NCBI GenBank assembly: GCA_963539815.1
Contig: CAUTMO010000003.1
Location: 131 to 64,130 of the forward strand
Direction of reading: 5' to 3'
Length of the DNA stretch: 64,000 bases
Source of the DNA: an uncultured Candidatus Saccharibacteria bacterium
GTDB taxonomy: Bacteria > Patescibacteriota > Saccharimonadia > Saccharimonadales > Saccharimonadaceae
The notes beneath the pieces were generated by a model that worked only from the letters and a program-made list of their open reading frames with translations, ran no database searches and was not told the DNA's origin. Below are positions 31,197 to 35,694 of the stretch, in pieces (the stretch's first letter is position 1; every line of letters begins with the position of its first letter). Both the position numbers and the translations under genes were made by a program.

Positions 31197-34106
31197 TTAC
31201 GCTTTTTTCAGGGAAATTTCTACCAATTTACCCTCGATTTTGACGTCATATTTTTCCGATTCATCGACTGCAGAATTTAATTCCACAGCAAGGGTTTCAG
31301 CTTTAATGACGTCAGCAAAAGCATCAATAGCTTGAGATATTTCAGAATCGTCACTGGAGATACTCAGTACAATTCGATCATCTATCTGCAGACCAGCCTG
31401 CTTGCGTGCGCTTTGGACGTGGCGAACGATTTCGCGCATCAAACCTTCACGCTTTAATTCAGGAGTGATTGTTAAGTCATAAACAACACTCGGTTGCGCC
31501 GACTCAGACTCTGACTCTGTAACAATTTCAACCGATTTCACGTTCAATTCATCTTTAGCGATATCAATCAAGAACTGCGCAACTTCCGCTGGCGTATCCT
31601 GAGAAATAGTGTTGACAAGTTTCACAGACGCCAACGGCTGACGCACTTTAATTCCCTCTGATGCGCGCTTCGACAAGCCGTCATTCACCGCAGTACGCAG
31701 TGCATTCATGTCGCGTAGCATTGAATTATCTATTTCACCAGCCGGCAACCAATCTTTAAGATGAATCGACTCGTTATCGCCCGTCAAATTATGGTACAAT
31801 TCTTCCGCTAAGAATGGCGTAAACGGCGCTAGCATATAGCTGAGTCGCACCAAAACGTAATGGAGCGTGCGGTAAGCGTCATTTTTATCACCGTCATCTT
31901 CAGATTTCCAGAAGCGGCGACGACTGCGTCGAACATACCAGTTACTTGCGTCGTCTAAGAACGGCAAGATCGGCTTGGTTGCGTCCTGTAGATTATAGTT
32001 GTTAAGACCTCGCTCGACCTCTGTTATCAATTGATGCAACCTCGACACAATCCAAATATCCAACGGATTTGTTAAATCGTGAAGCGGATCTGACAAATCG
32101 CCGTTAAACTCCCAGCCGTCAACTTCAGCATACATCGTGAAGAAGTCGTACATGTTCCAGATCATACCAAGCTTACGCGCTACATCCATCACATCCTTAT
32201 CCGCCAAGGCAAAGTTTTCGCCATTTGTTAGTGGACTTGAAAGCATCAAGAATCGGAAGCTGTCGGCCGAAGTCTTATTCATCAATTCCATCGGATCGGT
32301 ATAATTCTTTAGCTTCTTGCTCATTTTTTTACCGTCGGCGGCATTGATAAATCCAGTACAAATCAAATTCTTCCATGGAGATTTACCAAACAAAGCCACG
32401 TTTACCGCCGTTAAACTATAAAACCAGCCACGAGTTTGATCAATCGCTTCAATGATAAAGTCAGCCGGAAAACTTGCTTCAAATTTTTCCTTGTTCTCAA
32501 ATGGATAATGGAACTGAGCAAACGGCATCGAACCAGATTCAAACCAGCAGTCCAAAACCTTACCAATATGATGCATTTCTGCGCCGTCGCATTCAAACGT
32601 AACGTCCATAACTTGTGGTAAATGATAATCGTCCAGCTTGCGACCTGTAACTTCTTCAAATTCCGCAAAGCTACCAATCACCTTCACCACTTCCGTGCCA
32701 TCATTTTTCACACCCTTCCATACTGGAATTGGTGTTGCCCAATAACGATCGCGGCTCAAATTCCAATCTGGCGCCTGCTCGATGATGTTATGGAATCGTC
32801 CAGTCCTCAGATTATCTGGCGTCCAACTTGTCTGCTCGTTCGCTTCCAACATTTCCTTTTTCTGGCTCTGAATATCCATAAACCAACTCGGATGAGCGCG
32901 GTACATCAATTTCGTGCCACATCGATGACAATGCGGATATTCGTGGCGAATATATTCAATTTTCAGCGCCCGACCTTCTTCCAGTAAAGTCTTCGCTATT
33001 TCCTTATTCACCTCCCAGATGTTGCGATCCAGCCATCTACCTTCTGTGTAATTTCCATCACCGTCAACCAACGACAATACTGGAACGTCATTTTTTCGGC
33101 ACAATTCATAGTCGTCCTCACCGTAAGCTGGCGCGATATGAACAATTCCCGTACCGTCCTCAGTTGTCACAAAATCGGCGTGAAGAATCTTATGCGCAGC
33201 CGGCCCACGATTTTCAAATAGCGGCTCGAATCTTTTGCCCACCAATTCAGAACCTTTAATCGTCTTAACAATTGAATATTCCAACGGCTGATGTTTTTCA
33301 TCCGTCATAACTTTCTCAACACGATCACTTGCAACGTAAAACTTTTTACCGCCATACGCCACCAAAGAATAATCGACATCCTGATTTACCGCCAAGACCA
33401 TATTTGCTGGTAAAGTCCACGGTGTTGTCGTCCACGCAAGCAAATATTCATCCTCATCCTCCAGCTTAAAGTAGACGAATAAGCTCGGGTCAGTGTCCAT
33501 TTGATAGCTATTTTCCATAGCCACTTCACTCTTAGAAATTGGCGTCGCATCCTTTGTGCAATAGACCAAAATCTTTTCGCCTTCGTAGATTTTGCCTTCT
33601 TCGTAAAGCCTCTTGAACGCCCACCAAACAGATTCCATGTAATTGTTATCCATGGTTTTATAAGCGCCCTTAAATTCAACCCAACGACCAATTCGCTCAA
33701 TCGTATCTTCCCACTCGGTACCAGTTCGAACCATAGCCGCTCGACATTCCTTGACATAATCCGAAACGCTAATTTTCGTGCCAATCTCTTTTTTATTAGA
33801 AATGCCTAGCGTTTTTTCGACGTAAACCTCTGCTGGCAGTCCGTGGCAGTCCCAACCCCAACGGCGCTCAACTCGCTGACCTTTCATCGTGTGGAAGCGC
33901 CCCATCGTATCCTTCACCGTACTGACCAATAAATGTCCGTGGTGCGGCGTTCCCGTCAAAAACGGAGGACCGTCATAAAAAACCCAATAATTATCAGCAG
34001 GACGCTGCGCGATCGACTTATTAAATGTGTCATCCTCTTTCCATCGCTGCACCCAATCTTTCTCATATTCCGCAGCTCGACGACGTGTTCCATGTTTGAA
34101 TTTCAT
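31197..34106 (-). CDS. ileS: Isoleucyl-tRNA synthetase, eukaryote-like type 2
   Basis: PFLTGTPHHGHLLVSTVKD (HIGH region of the type 2 kind), KMSKKLKNYTDP (KMSKS), DWNLSRDRYWATPIPVW. The protein is 969 aa. Confidence 0.93.
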   Translation of the reverse strand: MKFKHGTRRRAAEYEKDWVQRWKEDDTFNKSIAQRPADNYWVFYDGPPFLTGTPHHGHLLVSTVKDTMGRFHTMKGQRVERRWGWDCHGLPAEVYVEKTLGISNKKEIGTKISVSDYVKECRAAMVRTGTEWEDTIERIGRWVEFKGAYKTMDNNYMESVWWAFKRLYEEGKIYEGEKILVYCTKDATPISKSEVAMENSYQMDTDPSLFVYFKLEDEDEYLLAWTTTPWTLPANMVLAVNQDVDYSLVAYGGKKFYVASDRVEKVMTDEKHQPLEYSIVKTIKGSELVGKRFEPLFENRGPAAHKILHADFVTTEDGTGIVHIAPAYGEDDYELCRKNDVPVLSLVDGDGNYTEGRWLDRNIWEVNKEIAKTLLEEGRALKIEYIRHEYPHCHRCGTKLMYRAHPSWFMDIQSQKKEMLEANEQTSWTPDNLRTGRFHNIIEQAPDWNLSRDRYWATPIPVWKGVKNDGTEVVKVIGSFAEFEEVTGRKLDDYHLPQVMDVTFECDGAEMHHIGKVLDCWFESGSMPFAQFHYPFENKEKFEASFPADFIIEAIDQTRGWFYSLTAVNVALFGKSPWKNLICTGFINAADGKKMSKKLKNYTDPMELMNKTSADSFRFLMLSSPLTNGENFALADKDVMDVARKLGMIWNMYDFFTMYAEVDGWEFNGDLSDPLHDLTNPLDIWIVSRLHQLITEVERGLNNYNLQDATKPILPFLDDASNWYVRRSRRRFWKSEDDGDKNDAYRTLHYVLVRLSYMLAPFTPFLAEELYHNLTGDNESIHLKDWLPAGEIDNSMLRDMNALRTAVNDGLSKRASEGIKVRQPLASVKLVNTISQDTPAEVAQFLIDIAKDELNVKSVEIVTESESESAQPSVVYDLTITPELKREGLMREIVRHVQSARKQAGLQIDDRIVLSISSDDSEISQAIDAFADVIKAETLAVELNSAVDESEKYDVKIEGKLVEISLKKA

Positions 34107-34132
34107 TACTTATCCCTTCCGCTTTGTATAAT

Positions 34133-34732
34133 TTACTTGTCTTCTAAGTCTTTTAATTTTTTACCATTAAATAACCAATAAGCTGCACCCTGGTACGCAC
34201 CACTGGCATTGCGCTTACCTTTTTTCTGGAAAATTTCACGGGTTAACGGCGACAATTTATAGACCTCGCCGTCATATTCAACCTCCCTCTCGCCAGCAAC
34301 AGTTGCACTAATGGATTTATCTTGCGCAAAGACAATCACGTCACCGTTTTTCAGCCCTTTTTGATAAAAACTAAATAGCGACCCCTGCTTTCGCAATCGC
34401 ACTACATCGTCAAATGCATGCTCCTTATTGATATTTTTTGGATAAACTACTTGACCGTCAAATGCCAGCAATAGCTGTTTAACGAGTTCACAATCTAGAG
34501 CAAACAGCTCACTATCATCGACTCGATGCTTACTAAAAATTTCATGTAGCAACGCCTCTTTATCATCATAATCGTTGAGTTCAATAGCAAAAAATTGCTT
34601 CAGCCCAGAAACATTATAATACCCATTCCGCTCAAGATGTCGCATTCTCTCGTTGTAGTTTTGTAATCCAGTTTTACCGATTTTAATCAGCCCAGAGACT
34701 GCGGTATTCATAATATAGACAATACCTTTCAT
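34133..34732 (-). CDS. GIY-YIG-like T5orf172/MUG113-domain protein (nuclease-like) with a DUF4357-like C-terminus
   Basis: KGIVYIMNTAVSGLIKIGKTGLQNYNERMRHLERNG...ALLHEIFSKHRVDDSELFALD fits the T5orf172/MUG113 pattern. SD AAAGGAG lies 5 nt upstream. Confidence 0.65.
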   Translation of the reverse strand: MKGIVYIMNTAVSGLIKIGKTGLQNYNERMRHLERNGYYNVSGLKQFFAIELNDYDDKEALLHEIFSKHRVDDSELFALDCELVKQLLLAFDGQVVYPKNINKEHAFDDVVRLRKQGSLFSFYQKGLKNGDVIVFAQDKSISATVAGEREVEYDGEVYKLSPLTREIFQKKGKRNASGAYQGAAYWLFNGKKLKDLEDK

Positions 34733-34749
34733 CGCACTCCTTTCATAAA

Positions 34750-34950
34750 TTAAAAATCACCTCTTTTGACTTCGAGAATCCGCTCAGGTGTTTTATGCGG
34801 ACGGTACCATCTCGATTCCAAAAGAAGTGATTCTTTCAGCTCTTTATTTGCTATTTACGCAAGCTCACGGCAGGTTCTAATCTCGACTTTATGCCGATTT
34901 CTTCCCGCAGACTTCACGGCTGATAACCGCTCATTTCACGCCAATTCAAC
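34750..34950 (-). promoter_or_regulatory. T-box riboswitch leader, probable Ile specificity
   Basis: Minus strand 34814..34773 reads CGAGA-[UGGUACC]-GUCCGC-13 nt loop-GCGGAU-UCUCG. That is the canonical two-helix antiterminator with a 7-nt bulge carrying the T-box core. A hairpin GCGG-[UUAUCAG]-CCGU at 34930..34916 displays AUC followed by A. ileS lies downstream. Confidence 0.72.
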
Positions 34951-35007
34951 ATACGCGAAAACGCCCTACTGTTATTGTAGCGCGTTTTCATCAAAATCCC
35001 AAGAACT

Positions 35008-35694
35008 TTATTTAATTTCCAGACCGCCTAAAATACACTCGCCCTTCAGATGTAGAGTCTTTTTGGCAGAATCTTTAGGTAGAGTTTTATCGTCAGTTCC
35101 GCCCAAAAATCCGCGCACTTCGTTCTCGATAATCACATCGTCTGGCAAAGTAATATTAACGCCACCGCAAAATGTAAAAATTTCAATTACAGAACCGTCT
35201 TTAATCTTTGCTTGACGCAAATCCAAATCAACACCACCAAATATCGCAACCAACGAACCGCCAGTATAATCACCTTTTACGGCGTCTTCTTCGCCCCAAA
35301 AACAAGCAATTTTCTCATTACCTGCGTTGTCTTTGTCCAGCTTTTTGGAGCGCTTAATACCCTTAGGGCTAGTATTAAACATCATGGACAAACCAGCAAC
35401 AATCAAAACCACAGGCCAGAACACCTTCCAGATACTAACGTCAACTATTCCGTAAGAATTGAGGCCAATCAGAACGCCAATCGCAACCAGCAATAATCCC
35501 CAAATCCACGACGTTTTATTTCGATAATTGAATATATTCACCAGCCCAGATAATACAAATCCCGCAGCCCAAACCGTACCCCAGAAAATGTCCCAGCTAA
35601 TGTTAATAACCTCGAGGTTCTTCAATAGTAAAACCCCGCCGAGCGCCACGACTACAATGCTCAAAAACGCTCTAATCAGAGAACTTTTCTTCAT
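35008..35694 (-). CDS. LiaF-like cell-envelope stress protein (TM region plus a DUF2154-like C-domain)
   Basis: Four or five N-terminal TM helices and a C-terminal beta-rich segment GGVDLDLRQAKIKDGSVIEIFTFCGGVNITLPDDV, typical of the LiaF/YvqF C-terminus. Confidence 0.5.
   Translation of the reverse strand: MKKSSLIRAFLSIVVVALGGVLLLKNLEVINISWDIFWGTVWAAGFVLSGLVNIFNYRNKTSWIWGLLLVAIGVLIGLNSYGIVDVSIWKVFWPVVLIVAGLSMMFNTSPKGIKRSKKLDKDNAGNEKIACFWGEEDAVKGDYTGGSLVAIFGGVDLDLRQAKIKDGSVIEIFTFCGGVNITLPDDVIIENEVRGFLGGTDDKTLPKDSAKKTLHLKGECILGGLEIK

Follow-up and report, generated by a model that had tools for sequence, protein, structure and literature searches.

The window analysed here is a stretch of 64,000 nucleotides from an uncultured Candidatus Saccharibacteria bacterium (contig CAUTMO010000003.1 of assembly GCA_963539815.1), and our subject is the position in it between a putative T-box leader and ileS, the gene of isoleucyl-tRNA synthetase (IleRS), where a gene for a 199-aa protein of the T5orf172 family is found. 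The genome to which the window belongs (G000; G and L numbers denote the compared genomes and loci, respectively) is of the Nanosynbacter type and comprises ~0.67 Mb in 19 contigs. All window features given below lie on the minus strand. Read in that direction, the gene of a LiaF-like membrane protein (35008..35694; Pfam LiaI-LiaF-like_TM1, 2.4e-14, and LiaF-TM), which forms the conserved upstream flank, is followed by a non-coding leader of ~275 nt, the 199-aa open reading frame (ORF) assigned by Pfam to the GIY-YIG-like T5orf172/MUG113 families (34133..34732), a spacer of 26 nt (34107..34132), and the conserved downstream flank, ileS (31197..34106; 969 aa; Pfam tRNA-synt_1, 1.6e-122), which begins at 34106, 26 nt past the TAA of the ORF. 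Both ileS (one match in a search of the genome) and the 199-aa ORF are present in G000 in a single copy, and ileS is presumably the native target of the leader. This layout, with a nuclease-like ORF placed between leader and ileS on the same strand and a gap of 26 nt, had been described in a first-pass annotation made from the sequence alone, and all the coordinates hold. The same annotation saw no obvious promoter or terminator between the ORF and ileS, in agreement with a sequence scan that found no promoter-like or terminator-like site within the gap (34132..34107); the region 33800..35300 contains three promoter-like matches, which equals the shuffle expectation of 3.0.

The comparison of the interval between T-box and ileS in related genomes, proposed at that time as a check, yielded both alleles with the ORF and alleles without it, together with the exact boundaries between them. 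The 199-aa ORF was found in 15 of the 37 genomes of the genus and in one of the 24 other families of the order. Among genomes in which the N-terminal half of IleRS is 98-99% identical at the protein level and the flanks are 92-96% identical at the nucleotide level, six members of the same clade (G011, G026, G018, G005, G021 and G007) have empty sites, where the LiaF-like gene is followed by the leader, a spacer of 41-42 nt with a strong ileS ribosome-binding site, AAAGGAGG, and ileS itself; the LiaF-like gene precedes the leader in empty and filled genomes alike. At the filled sites, 641 nt take the place of the 41-42-nt spacer. The homology between empty and filled alleles is continuous through the leader up to ...GAGGTGATTTTTAATT (34748), breaks at 34748/34747, after the U-tract of the terminator, and resumes at the ATG of ileS, with no target-site duplication in the alignment. 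The insertion event replaced both the native spacer and the native ribosome-binding site of ileS. The earlier suggestion of an insertion into the leader-ileS boundary is thus borne out by six empty sites and by sharp boundaries. The 5' edge of the cargo (34733..34747), which directly follows the end of the empty-site homology at 34748, comprises the ribosome-binding region of T5orf172, AAAGGAG, the first copy of an octamer, ATGAAAGG, and most of a mini-ORF (see below); this edge is not conserved in the alleles of the G009 type. Decayed copies of T5orf172 are found as well, one of them frameshifted (G002) and another truncated (L115).

Across the genus, this position, hereafter the slot, shows at least six states of occupancy. 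Apart from being empty in the six genomes named above, the slot holds T5orf172 alone (in the window, G022, G013, G031 and G001, and, in the frameshifted form, G002); a trio encoding an EcoRI-like methylase, a 151-aa membrane protein and a GmrSD_N/HNH nuclease (G012 and G003); the same trio preceded by T5orf172 (G009, G019 and G035, as well as G032, where the contig ends in the membrane-protein gene); T5orf172 with a PDC-S11/NucS-like gene (G027); or T5orf172 with a NADAR gene (G025). These assignments come from profile matches (EcoRI_methylase, 1e-129; GmrSD_N plus HNH, or PADLOC REase_II, 1e-85; PDC-S11/NucS-like; NADAR). All cargo genes are on the ileS strand, with gaps of 0-26 nt or small overlaps between them, and the last of them extends up to or onto the ATG of ileS; T5orf172, where it is in the slot, is always the first gene, ~78 nt past the T-box core. 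Promoter-like matches in the full island of G009 number 12, as compared to 9.2±3.4 in shuffled sequences, and a 9/12 match, TTGCGA-16-CATAAT, located in the HNH gene of G009 20 nt before ileS, is deleted from the window allele. Related genomes carry alternative defence-type cargo between conserved flanks, as expected of a hotspot. A separate case is G029 (L031; N-terminal half of IleRS 94% identical), where other genes, with same-strand ORFs of 199 aa and 273 aa, occur 1.5 kb upstream of ileS, and where a motif search did not find the T-box core motif upstream of ileS; this suggests either a further state of the locus or the loss of the leader.

The slot is reminiscent of the defence islands and integration hotspots that lie between core genes of E. 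coli (PMC10121019): in both cases, one flank-bounded position holds alternative defence-type cargo depending on the strain, the cargo is more alike between species than the flanks are, and occupancy is decoupled from the phylogeny of the flanks. Unlike the E. coli hotspots, the slot is not a gap between operons but lies inside an essential aminoacyl-tRNA synthetase (aaRS) gene's 5' untranslated region (UTR), past the T-box terminator; it adjoins no tRNA or integrase site and contains no integrase or other mobility gene; its cargo must be co-oriented, free of terminators and, presumably, transcribed through the riboswitch; and the genome is only ~0.7 Mb in size. A literature search found no description of defence genes of foreign origin interposed between a riboswitch and the essential gene that is its target, and this location is a new variation on the known hotspot theme.

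The origin of the window allele can be judged from the last nucleotides before ileS. The final 17 nt of the spacer (34123..34107) read agcggaagggataagta, and the corresponding 18 nt in G001 and G002 are agcgaaaggaaataagta, which is exactly how the HNH nuclease gene of G012 and G003 ends (aga gcg aaa gga aat aag taA, RAKGNK-stop); the end of the nuclease gene in G009 differs from agcgaaaggaaataagta by one base, in the stop codon. Since members of the same nuclease family from other phyla, where no ileS is in the vicinity, also end in RAKGN[KR]-stop, the 17 nt that precede ileS should be assigned to the nuclease gene and not to the ileS UTR. Evidently, the stretch 34123..34107 is the 3'-terminal relic of a GmrSD_N/HNH nuclease gene that has been deleted, and it is this relic that now seems to supply the ribosome-binding region of ileS in the window allele. 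In the phylogenetic tree of T5orf172, all slot copies of the genus form a single clade (support 100/99), which shows a single origin of the slot T5orf172 within the genus, and the group with T5orf172 alone is nested among the cargo-bearing copies. This nesting, together with the nuclease relic, implies that the window state arose from a four-gene island, ~2.8 kb of which (the methylase gene, the membrane-protein gene and most of the nuclease gene) were apparently deleted in the window's lineage. The inserted unit had been pictured in the first-pass annotation as a lone nuclease cassette, which is at odds with the HNH nuclease codons retained before ileS; a four-gene island appears to have come earlier. 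G044, which belongs to another family of the order and in which an independent acquisition of the gene would have pointed to site-specific targeting, falls into a polytomy on the same tree, and its 5' UTR shares AAAGGAGTGC with the window, a weak hint of common origin.

A scar had been suspected at the opposite edge of the cargo, where ATGAAAGG is present at 34746..34739 and again at 34732..34725, 14 nt apart from start to start, and where the first copy opens the mini-ORF ATG AAA GGA GTG CGA TGA (34746..34729; MKGVR), the TGA of which overlaps the ATG of T5orf172. The repeat and the mini-ORF are there as described, but their interpretation as a junction scar does not stand. The octamer occurs four times in the whole window, with 3.35 occurrences expected, that is, at chance level. 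Its second copy is the native M-K-G start of the family, ATGAAAGG(A/T), conserved across phyla, whereas the first copy is the Shine-Dalgarno sequence of T5orf172, AAAGGAG, behind a chance ATG, and is missing from sister alleles (the G009 type has GAGAAAGGAATAAT-ATG, and G044 has GTAAAAGGAGTGC...ATG). Two copies of the octamer 14 nt apart are unusual by chance, and function would account for both of them. On these grounds, ATGAAAGG was rejected as an insertion scar or target-site duplication. A conserved, coupled mini-ORF MKGVR was rejected as well, being not conserved in L071, G044 and G023.

The alleles of the slot move between strains and species. The window shares with G022, a genome of another species, a tract (33989..34889) that has one difference in 901 nt, against a background of 5.7% (P(<=1) = 5.6e-22); it spans 157 nt of the 3' part of the leader, the cassette in full, and 118 nt at the start of ileS. 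The G022 cassette is 99.8% identical to that of the window, whereas the flanks are 94-95% identical; a near-identical tract centred on the cassette shows a recent recombinational transfer. Between the two species clades, the restriction-modification (R-M) cargo is 90-91% identical (79% for the methylase, which is a mosaic), as compared to 69% for the liaF-like gene and 61% for ileS, and the identity at the level of the cargo fades within the first ~200 nt of ileS. In the ileS tree of the close clade, the states of occupancy are no more clustered than shuffled labels, and one well-supported pair of sisters consists of an empty and a filled genome. Slot alleles are, then, exchanged by homologous recombination, for which the leader and the beginning of ileS serve as the conserved arms; natural competence has been published for Saccharibacteria (PMC10633639).

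The nature of the leader requires separate consideration. At the gathering score, a search against Rfam returned no match anywhere in the window, the T-box included. A permissive search returned RF00230 at 23.2 bits, the gathering score being 93, with an E-value of 0.0088 and a match to model positions 106-216; the matched 3' half of the leader (34774..34897) includes the bulged hairpin GAGA[UGGUACC]GUCCG...CGGAUUCUC, with the T-box bulge UGGUACC at 34809..34803. The core of this hairpin is invariant across nine aligned diverged leaders. The specifier hairpin GCGG-UUAUCAG-CCGU (34916..34930) exposes, in a 7-nt loop, the isoleucine codon AUC (34924..34922) followed by A; in the genus and in other families, the hairpin is also seen as GCGG-CUAUCAA-CCGC, the stem changes being compensatory, and the AUC-A specifier loop stands upstream of ileS in all leaders compared. 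A Stem II-like element is common to the leaders of diverged genus members and of other families of the order. The T-box hairpin is enclosed by a long terminator-like helix (34747..34836 including the U-tract, UUUUUAAUUU, that follows; 5' arm ~34836..34818, 3' arm 34768..34752), which is contained in both the minimum free energy and the centroid folds of the window leader (z = -4.1); in the compared leaders, the arms of the outer helix are AAGAAUCACUUCUUUUGG and CAAAAGAGGUGAUUUUU, followed by the U-tract. The RNAalifold consensus of the leaders has 44 pairs, 16 of them with compensatory changes, and two further families of the order gave full-length, if sub-threshold, Rfam T-box matches upstream of ileS (36.2 and 32.6 bits). 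Owing to the AUC+A specifier, the UGGUACC bulge, the helix with its U-tract, the covariation and the matches in other families, the leader can be accepted as a divergent Ile T-box, so that its original designation stands with the reservation that Rfam makes no such call at gathering.

The expression platform is read as a transcription terminator because G044 has retained the outer helix by covariation while its Shine-Dalgarno-like sequence is gone, and because a U-tract is found directly 3' of the helix in every leader compared. The helix stops exactly at the left junction of the slot. The Stem III pairing, worked out by hand, is predicted to compete with the 5' arm of the terminator helix. 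A promoter-like site, TTGGGA-17-TACAAT (34974..35002; consensus match), precedes the leader, and the same hexamers with the same spacing are present in the diverged G009 clade (L050 2889-2917), where the flanks are only ~69% identical. The 3' arm of the terminator helix (34768..34752) also holds a near-perfect Shine-Dalgarno sequence, GAGGUGAU. At the empty sites of G011, G026, G021 and G007 (L020 ~1440-1500), a TTG located 6 nt past this sequence opens a 15-codon in-frame extension of ileS, and in G018 and G005 this TTG is the start of an upstream ORF of 15 codons, the TGA of which overlaps the ATG of ileS. The arrangement could be either a layer of translational control or a chance occurrence; in G044, the helix is kept and the Shine-Dalgarno-like sequence lost. 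The closest described relatives of the leader are the ileS T-boxes of M. tuberculosis and M. smegmatis with their very short Stem I (PMC11297988, PMC7583486), which likewise reside upstream of ileS, carry an AUC specifier in a short hairpin, and have a Stem II-like element and a UGGN bulge matching an A discriminator. In contrast to this actinobacterial type, the leader described here has a long helix with a U-tract, similar to a terminator, instead of a Shine-Dalgarno sequestrator, and keeps this helix in G044 where no Shine-Dalgarno-like sequence is left; it scores well under the Rfam threshold, and is separated from ileS by up to 3.4 kb of foreign genes.

Since the cargo is co-oriented and tightly packed, with no terminator and no promoters above chance, and since ileS has no other evident promoter, transcription of the slot would depend on read-through at the T-box, and T5orf172 and ileS are most likely co-transcribed under its control. 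The first-pass annotation had raised two outcomes, a nuclease gene regulated by amino-acid starvation or an ileS partly uncoupled from its riboswitch; the layout of the genes speaks for a joint transcript under the T-box.

The product of the T5orf172 gene matches Pfam PF10544, T5orf172, over residues 3-88 (9.7e-8; 32.9 bits with a cut-off of 20) and PF13455, MUG113 (2.5e-7; 31.6 bits with a cut-off of 22.3), as well as, over its full length (residues 2-198), the PADLOC profiles PDLC05040 (4e-55) and PDLC05041 (4.3e-37) of the defence candidate PDC-S57; the best match in PHROGs (2.5e-9) is annotated as homing endonuclease. Structure prediction with AlphaFold2, also suggested in the first-pass annotation, gave, with moderate confidence, a GIY-YIG-like N-terminal domain (residues ~1-95) with the order beta-beta-alpha-beta-alpha-alpha (strands 3-10, 16-22 and 44-52; helices 26-38, 55-69 and 81-89), a linker helix (104-119) and a C-terminal domain (~125-199). 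The best Foldseek match in the PDB is the C-terminal DNA-binding domain of CcrM, followed by Slx1, UPF0213 and HIGLE with weak scores; the matches in BFVD are T5orf172 proteins, ICP1 ORF88 among them, with a probability of 1.0 over ~90-125 residues, in the N-terminal domain only. A sequence search of the PDB with the family profile returned no match. Residues Y6, G19, R29, R31 and E75 do not vary among 36 homologs of diverse phyla, and may include the counterparts of the tyrosine of the GIY motif, the arginine and the catalytic glutamate. The family is conserved, with 65-72% identity to the window protein and a mean column identity of 83% among the 36 sequences. The gene is under strong purifying selection, with dN/dS of 0.02-0.10 both within and between clades, and with dS saturated between clades.

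No match to the protein was found in 50,697 phage genomes, and a plasmid collection gave only five weak matches, including those in Neisseria and Phocaeicola. The Neisseria gonorrhoeae match (L142 4001-4313; NZ_CP119140.1) is 49% identical to residues 12-116, is split into two pieces within an unannotated stretch, and may be a pseudogene remnant; the replicon is of chromosome size (2.17 Mb), although PLSDB lists it as a plasmid. The family itself is found in many phyla of the Candidate Phyla Radiation (CPR) and in metagenome-assembled genomes (MAGs) labelled as Planctomycetota, Ignavibacteriota, Bacteroidota, Pseudomonadota and Actinomycetota, which implies horizontal spread, with a mis-binned shared mobile element as an alternative. 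In addition, the first 24 nt of the T5orf172 gene, ATGAAAGGAATTATTTACATAATG, are identical across phyla (L095, L096, L099-L101, L103, L106, L107, L112, L114, L123, L125, L128, L133 and L135), in contigs binned to Microgenomates, Planctomycetota, Ignavibacteriota, Gammaproteobacteria, Bacteroidota and several CPR phyla; this identity reflects either very recent horizontal transfer or a shared mobile element mis-binned into many MAGs.

Outside the clade of the genus, G044 and L115, the gene does not have ileS as a neighbour: more than 50 relatives, 65-72% identical, are in unrelated contexts. In other phyla, an EcoRI-like methylase gene is upstream in 11 of 44 cases and a GmrSD_N plus HNH nuclease gene downstream in 10 of 45; other neighbours are genes of type I R-M systems, EcoRI, BrxA, DpnI, RadC and Bro-N. 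The junctions there fall into three classes, with the gene beginning 1 nt past the stop of a methylase gene, directly after a small helix-turn-helix (HTH) gene, or behind its own TATAAT box. The genome of the window itself has, on contig C9 (L141 3961-6143, minus strand), a paralogous pair in which an EcoRI-like methylase gene (363 aa) overlaps a GmrSD_N/HNH nuclease gene (364 aa) by 4 nt, with no T5orf172 between them. This pair, together with the R-M contexts elsewhere, makes the T5orf172 gene an optional passenger of R-M operons. Its dependence on an EcoRI-like methylase was rejected by co-occurrence: intact T5orf172 is found without such a methylase (PF13651) in G031 (99% complete), G022 (96%), G027 (92%), G044 (98%) and G004 (99%). 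Dependence on N6_N4 methylases is likewise unsupported, because G004 and G044 have neither EcoRI-like nor N6_N4 (PF01555) methylases, these two families, to the exclusion of other classes, being those covered by the survey. In G020 (L056 3638-4246) and G004 (L057 3520-4128), a 64%-identical copy of T5orf172 is located between genes of a DUF218 protein and a MazG/dUTPase-like protein, with neither ileS nor a T-box in the vicinity, and both surveyed methylase families are missing from these genomes; a T-box motif upstream of the two copies was rejected, being a chance GTGGTACCGG within coding sequence. As for ileS in relatives, a long IleRS of 1150-1400 aa, by the length of the open frame, occurs in G027 (L053 4989-8900), G025, G010, G015, G016, G004, G030 and G006, with an insertion of ~300 aa after approximately residue 218, just before the motif WTTTPWTLPAN of the editing domain; the IleRS of the window has no such insertion. 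An intein was considered for these proteins and rejected, since Pfam finds LMWPc (5e-13) and NUDIX (5e-9).

When all these data are considered together, we regard it as probable that the locus is a defence-island hotspot in a T-box-controlled 5' UTR, holding in the window the survivor of a decayed island of the R-M type. The untranslated stretch between the terminator and the ribosome-binding site of ileS would be a genus-wide recombination hotspot for alternative defence-type cargo. T5orf172, as a PDC-S57 candidate, would have entered the slot once, as the first gene of an island that also encoded the EcoRI-like adenine methylase, the small membrane protein and the GmrSD_N/HNH restriction nuclease. 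The lineage of the window would then have lost the latter three genes, retaining T5orf172 and the last 17 nt of the HNH gene, while slot alleles were swapped between strains and species by homologous recombination. A single transcript covering leader, cargo and ileS would be made only upon T-box read-through, so that the nuclease gene would be induced by uncharged tRNA-Ile, with ileS translated via the ribosome-binding site provided by the remains of the nuclease gene. The defence role of the 199-aa protein is suggested by direct, full-length matches to the PDC-S57 profiles and by neighbourhoods in other phyla that are rich in R-M and other defence genes; in comparison with PDC-S57 genes elsewhere, the gene here stands alone behind a riboswitch and not within a multi-system island.

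Several points weigh against this interpretation. The score of the leader is far below the Rfam T-box threshold. The T-box control of the nuclease gene is deduced from the layout of the genes, and, the promoter scans being crude, one of the two 9/12 matches inside the T5orf172 ORF might be an internal promoter, even though such matches are no more frequent than expected by chance. The AlphaFold2 model is of moderate confidence (pLDDT 74, pTM 0.46), and the E-values of the fold matches in the PDB are 0.02 or worse. The nuclease activity is presumed from the motif. PDC-S57 is a candidate defence system only, chosen by guilt by association, and a literature search found no paper naming it and no experimental evidence. 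Finally, variable presence, an essential gene as neighbour, co-converted flanks and frameshifted copies are equally expected of a free-standing homing endonuclease.

The latter is the main and serious rival, even though we consider it unlikely. According to this scenario, T5orf172 would be a selfish driver that cuts the empty allele near the terminator-ileS junction, whereupon repair copies the gene together with the linked cargo. In phages, T5orf172 is a GIY-YIG subfamily of free-standing homing endonuclease genes, which are located beside essential genes, are variable, often frameshifted, and mark recombination boundaries (PMC10448857). The likeness to these genes of ICP1 and T5-like phages, as well as to the seg genes of T4, includes the family of the catalytic domain, with ICP1 ORF88 among the fold matches, the situation of a small promoter-less gene between conserved genes and beside an essential one, and a presence that varies, frameshifts in some copies, and recombination tracts with the gene at their centre (PMC10448857). 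The locus shows just these signatures: ileS as the essential neighbour, empty and filled alleles, the frameshift in G002 and the truncation in L115. It also shows a transfer tract in which 120-160 nt of flank were co-converted on either side; this combination of polymorphism and co-conversion is not specific to homing, however. The tracts are accounted for just as well by homologous recombination of the ordinary kind that follows natural transformation. In the order of its domains (catalytic, linker, DNA-binding), the protein resembles I-TevI; the best PHROGs match points in the same direction, as does the fact that T5orf172 is always first in the slot and was kept when the R-M genes were deleted; and in other phyla the gene is wedged between the methylase and nuclease genes that abut directly in the C9 locus of G000. 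On the other hand, the low dN/dS with saturated synonymous sites between clades is indicative of long-term function rather than of cycles of invasion and decay, and empty and filled alleles coexist within a clade of ~5% divergence, with no sweep. Over 50 family members, in which the C-terminal domain is highly conserved (mean column identity 83%), reside at unrelated sites (after a methylase gene, after an HTH gene, near type I R-M genes), so there is no constant homing site, and the 50,697 phage genomes contain no homolog. The differences from the phage genes are of the same kind: the gene of the window is cellular, is under strong long-term purifying selection, encodes a CcrM-C-like C-terminal domain instead of CapR/DUF723 zinc-finger repeats, and belongs to a family that has no common insertion site and is usually embedded in R-M operons. 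On account of the low dN/dS, the PDC-S57 match and the absence of matches in the phage genomes, the epithet selfish, which the first-pass annotation applied to the cassette, is doubtful.

The hotspot scenario may be taken one step further, by assuming that the slot has been selected as an expression socket, with cargo transcribed only when uncharged tRNA-Ile accumulates. We regard this extension as decidedly unlikely; alternatively, the cargo might merely borrow a convenient promoter. Were it true, the expression of the nuclease and R-M genes of such ultrasmall epibionts would be tied to translation stress, such as takeover by a phage or a shortage of host-derived amino acids, the locus would represent a new coupling of a tRNA-sensing riboswitch with anti-phage immunity, and the cargo would make up a new class of T-box-regulated genes, related neither to aaRS nor to biosynthesis or transport.

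It is still harder to envisage T5orf172 as a classical type II GIY-YIG restriction endonuclease with its cognate methylase elsewhere in the genome, that is, as one half of a physically split R-M pair, and we deem this quite improbable. GIY-YIG restriction enzymes, such as Eco29kI and Hpy188I, are known; elsewhere, the gene lies 1 nt past the stop of an EcoRI-like methylase gene or directly after a small HTH gene ending in ...ALGVSLDDLMK, as in R-M controllers, with N6_N4 or D12 methylase genes downstream; and G000 does retain an EcoRI-like methylase on contig C9. The near-complete genomes listed above (G031, G022, G027, G044 and G004), however, combine an intact T5orf172 with the absence of an EcoRI-like methylase, G004 and G044 lack N6_N4 methylases as well, and neither surveyed class is always co-resident with the gene. 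Furthermore, the common three-gene module already contains a separate nuclease, the HNH protein recognized as PADLOC REase_II, and methylase partners of different classes would need to have one shared specificity. Finally, a domesticated gene with a host role tied to the status of isoleucine or tRNA-Ile, be it a starvation-induced nuclease or a DNA-binding regulator, the placement of which behind the T-box would be under selection, is most improbable: in the genus, as in G044 from another family, T5orf172 is always the first gene behind the T-box terminator, it evolves under strong purifying selection, was kept after the loss of the R-M genes, and has relatives among T5orf172/GIY-YIG proteins that double as repressors, such as I-TevI and CapR-related proteins (PMC10448857), but it is absent from many healthy close relatives and from 23 of the 24 other families of the order, the same protein family occurs in other phyla with no ileS or T-box nearby, and in G020 and G004, of the same genus, the copies sit between DUF218 and MazG-like genes.

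For PDC-S57, the analysis provides a genomic context and a domain architecture, a GIY-YIG-like domain combined with a CcrM-C-like domain. According to the prevailing view, the control exerted by T-box leaders is limited to amino-acid-related genes, which as a rule they directly adjoin. Here, up to 3.4 kb of R-M and nuclease genes lie between a riboswitch and an essential synthetase gene in a genome of 0.7 Mb, in an arrangement sufficiently stable for inheritance and exchange throughout the genus. Should the cargo depend on T-box read-through, this would be the first case known to us of defence genes under the control of tRNA charging. It would also illustrate how a variable defence repertoire can be housed in minimal genomes, where promoters are few and intergenic space is scarce, and the slot would offer a natural, flank-defined neutral site for the insertion of genes into competent Saccharibacteria.

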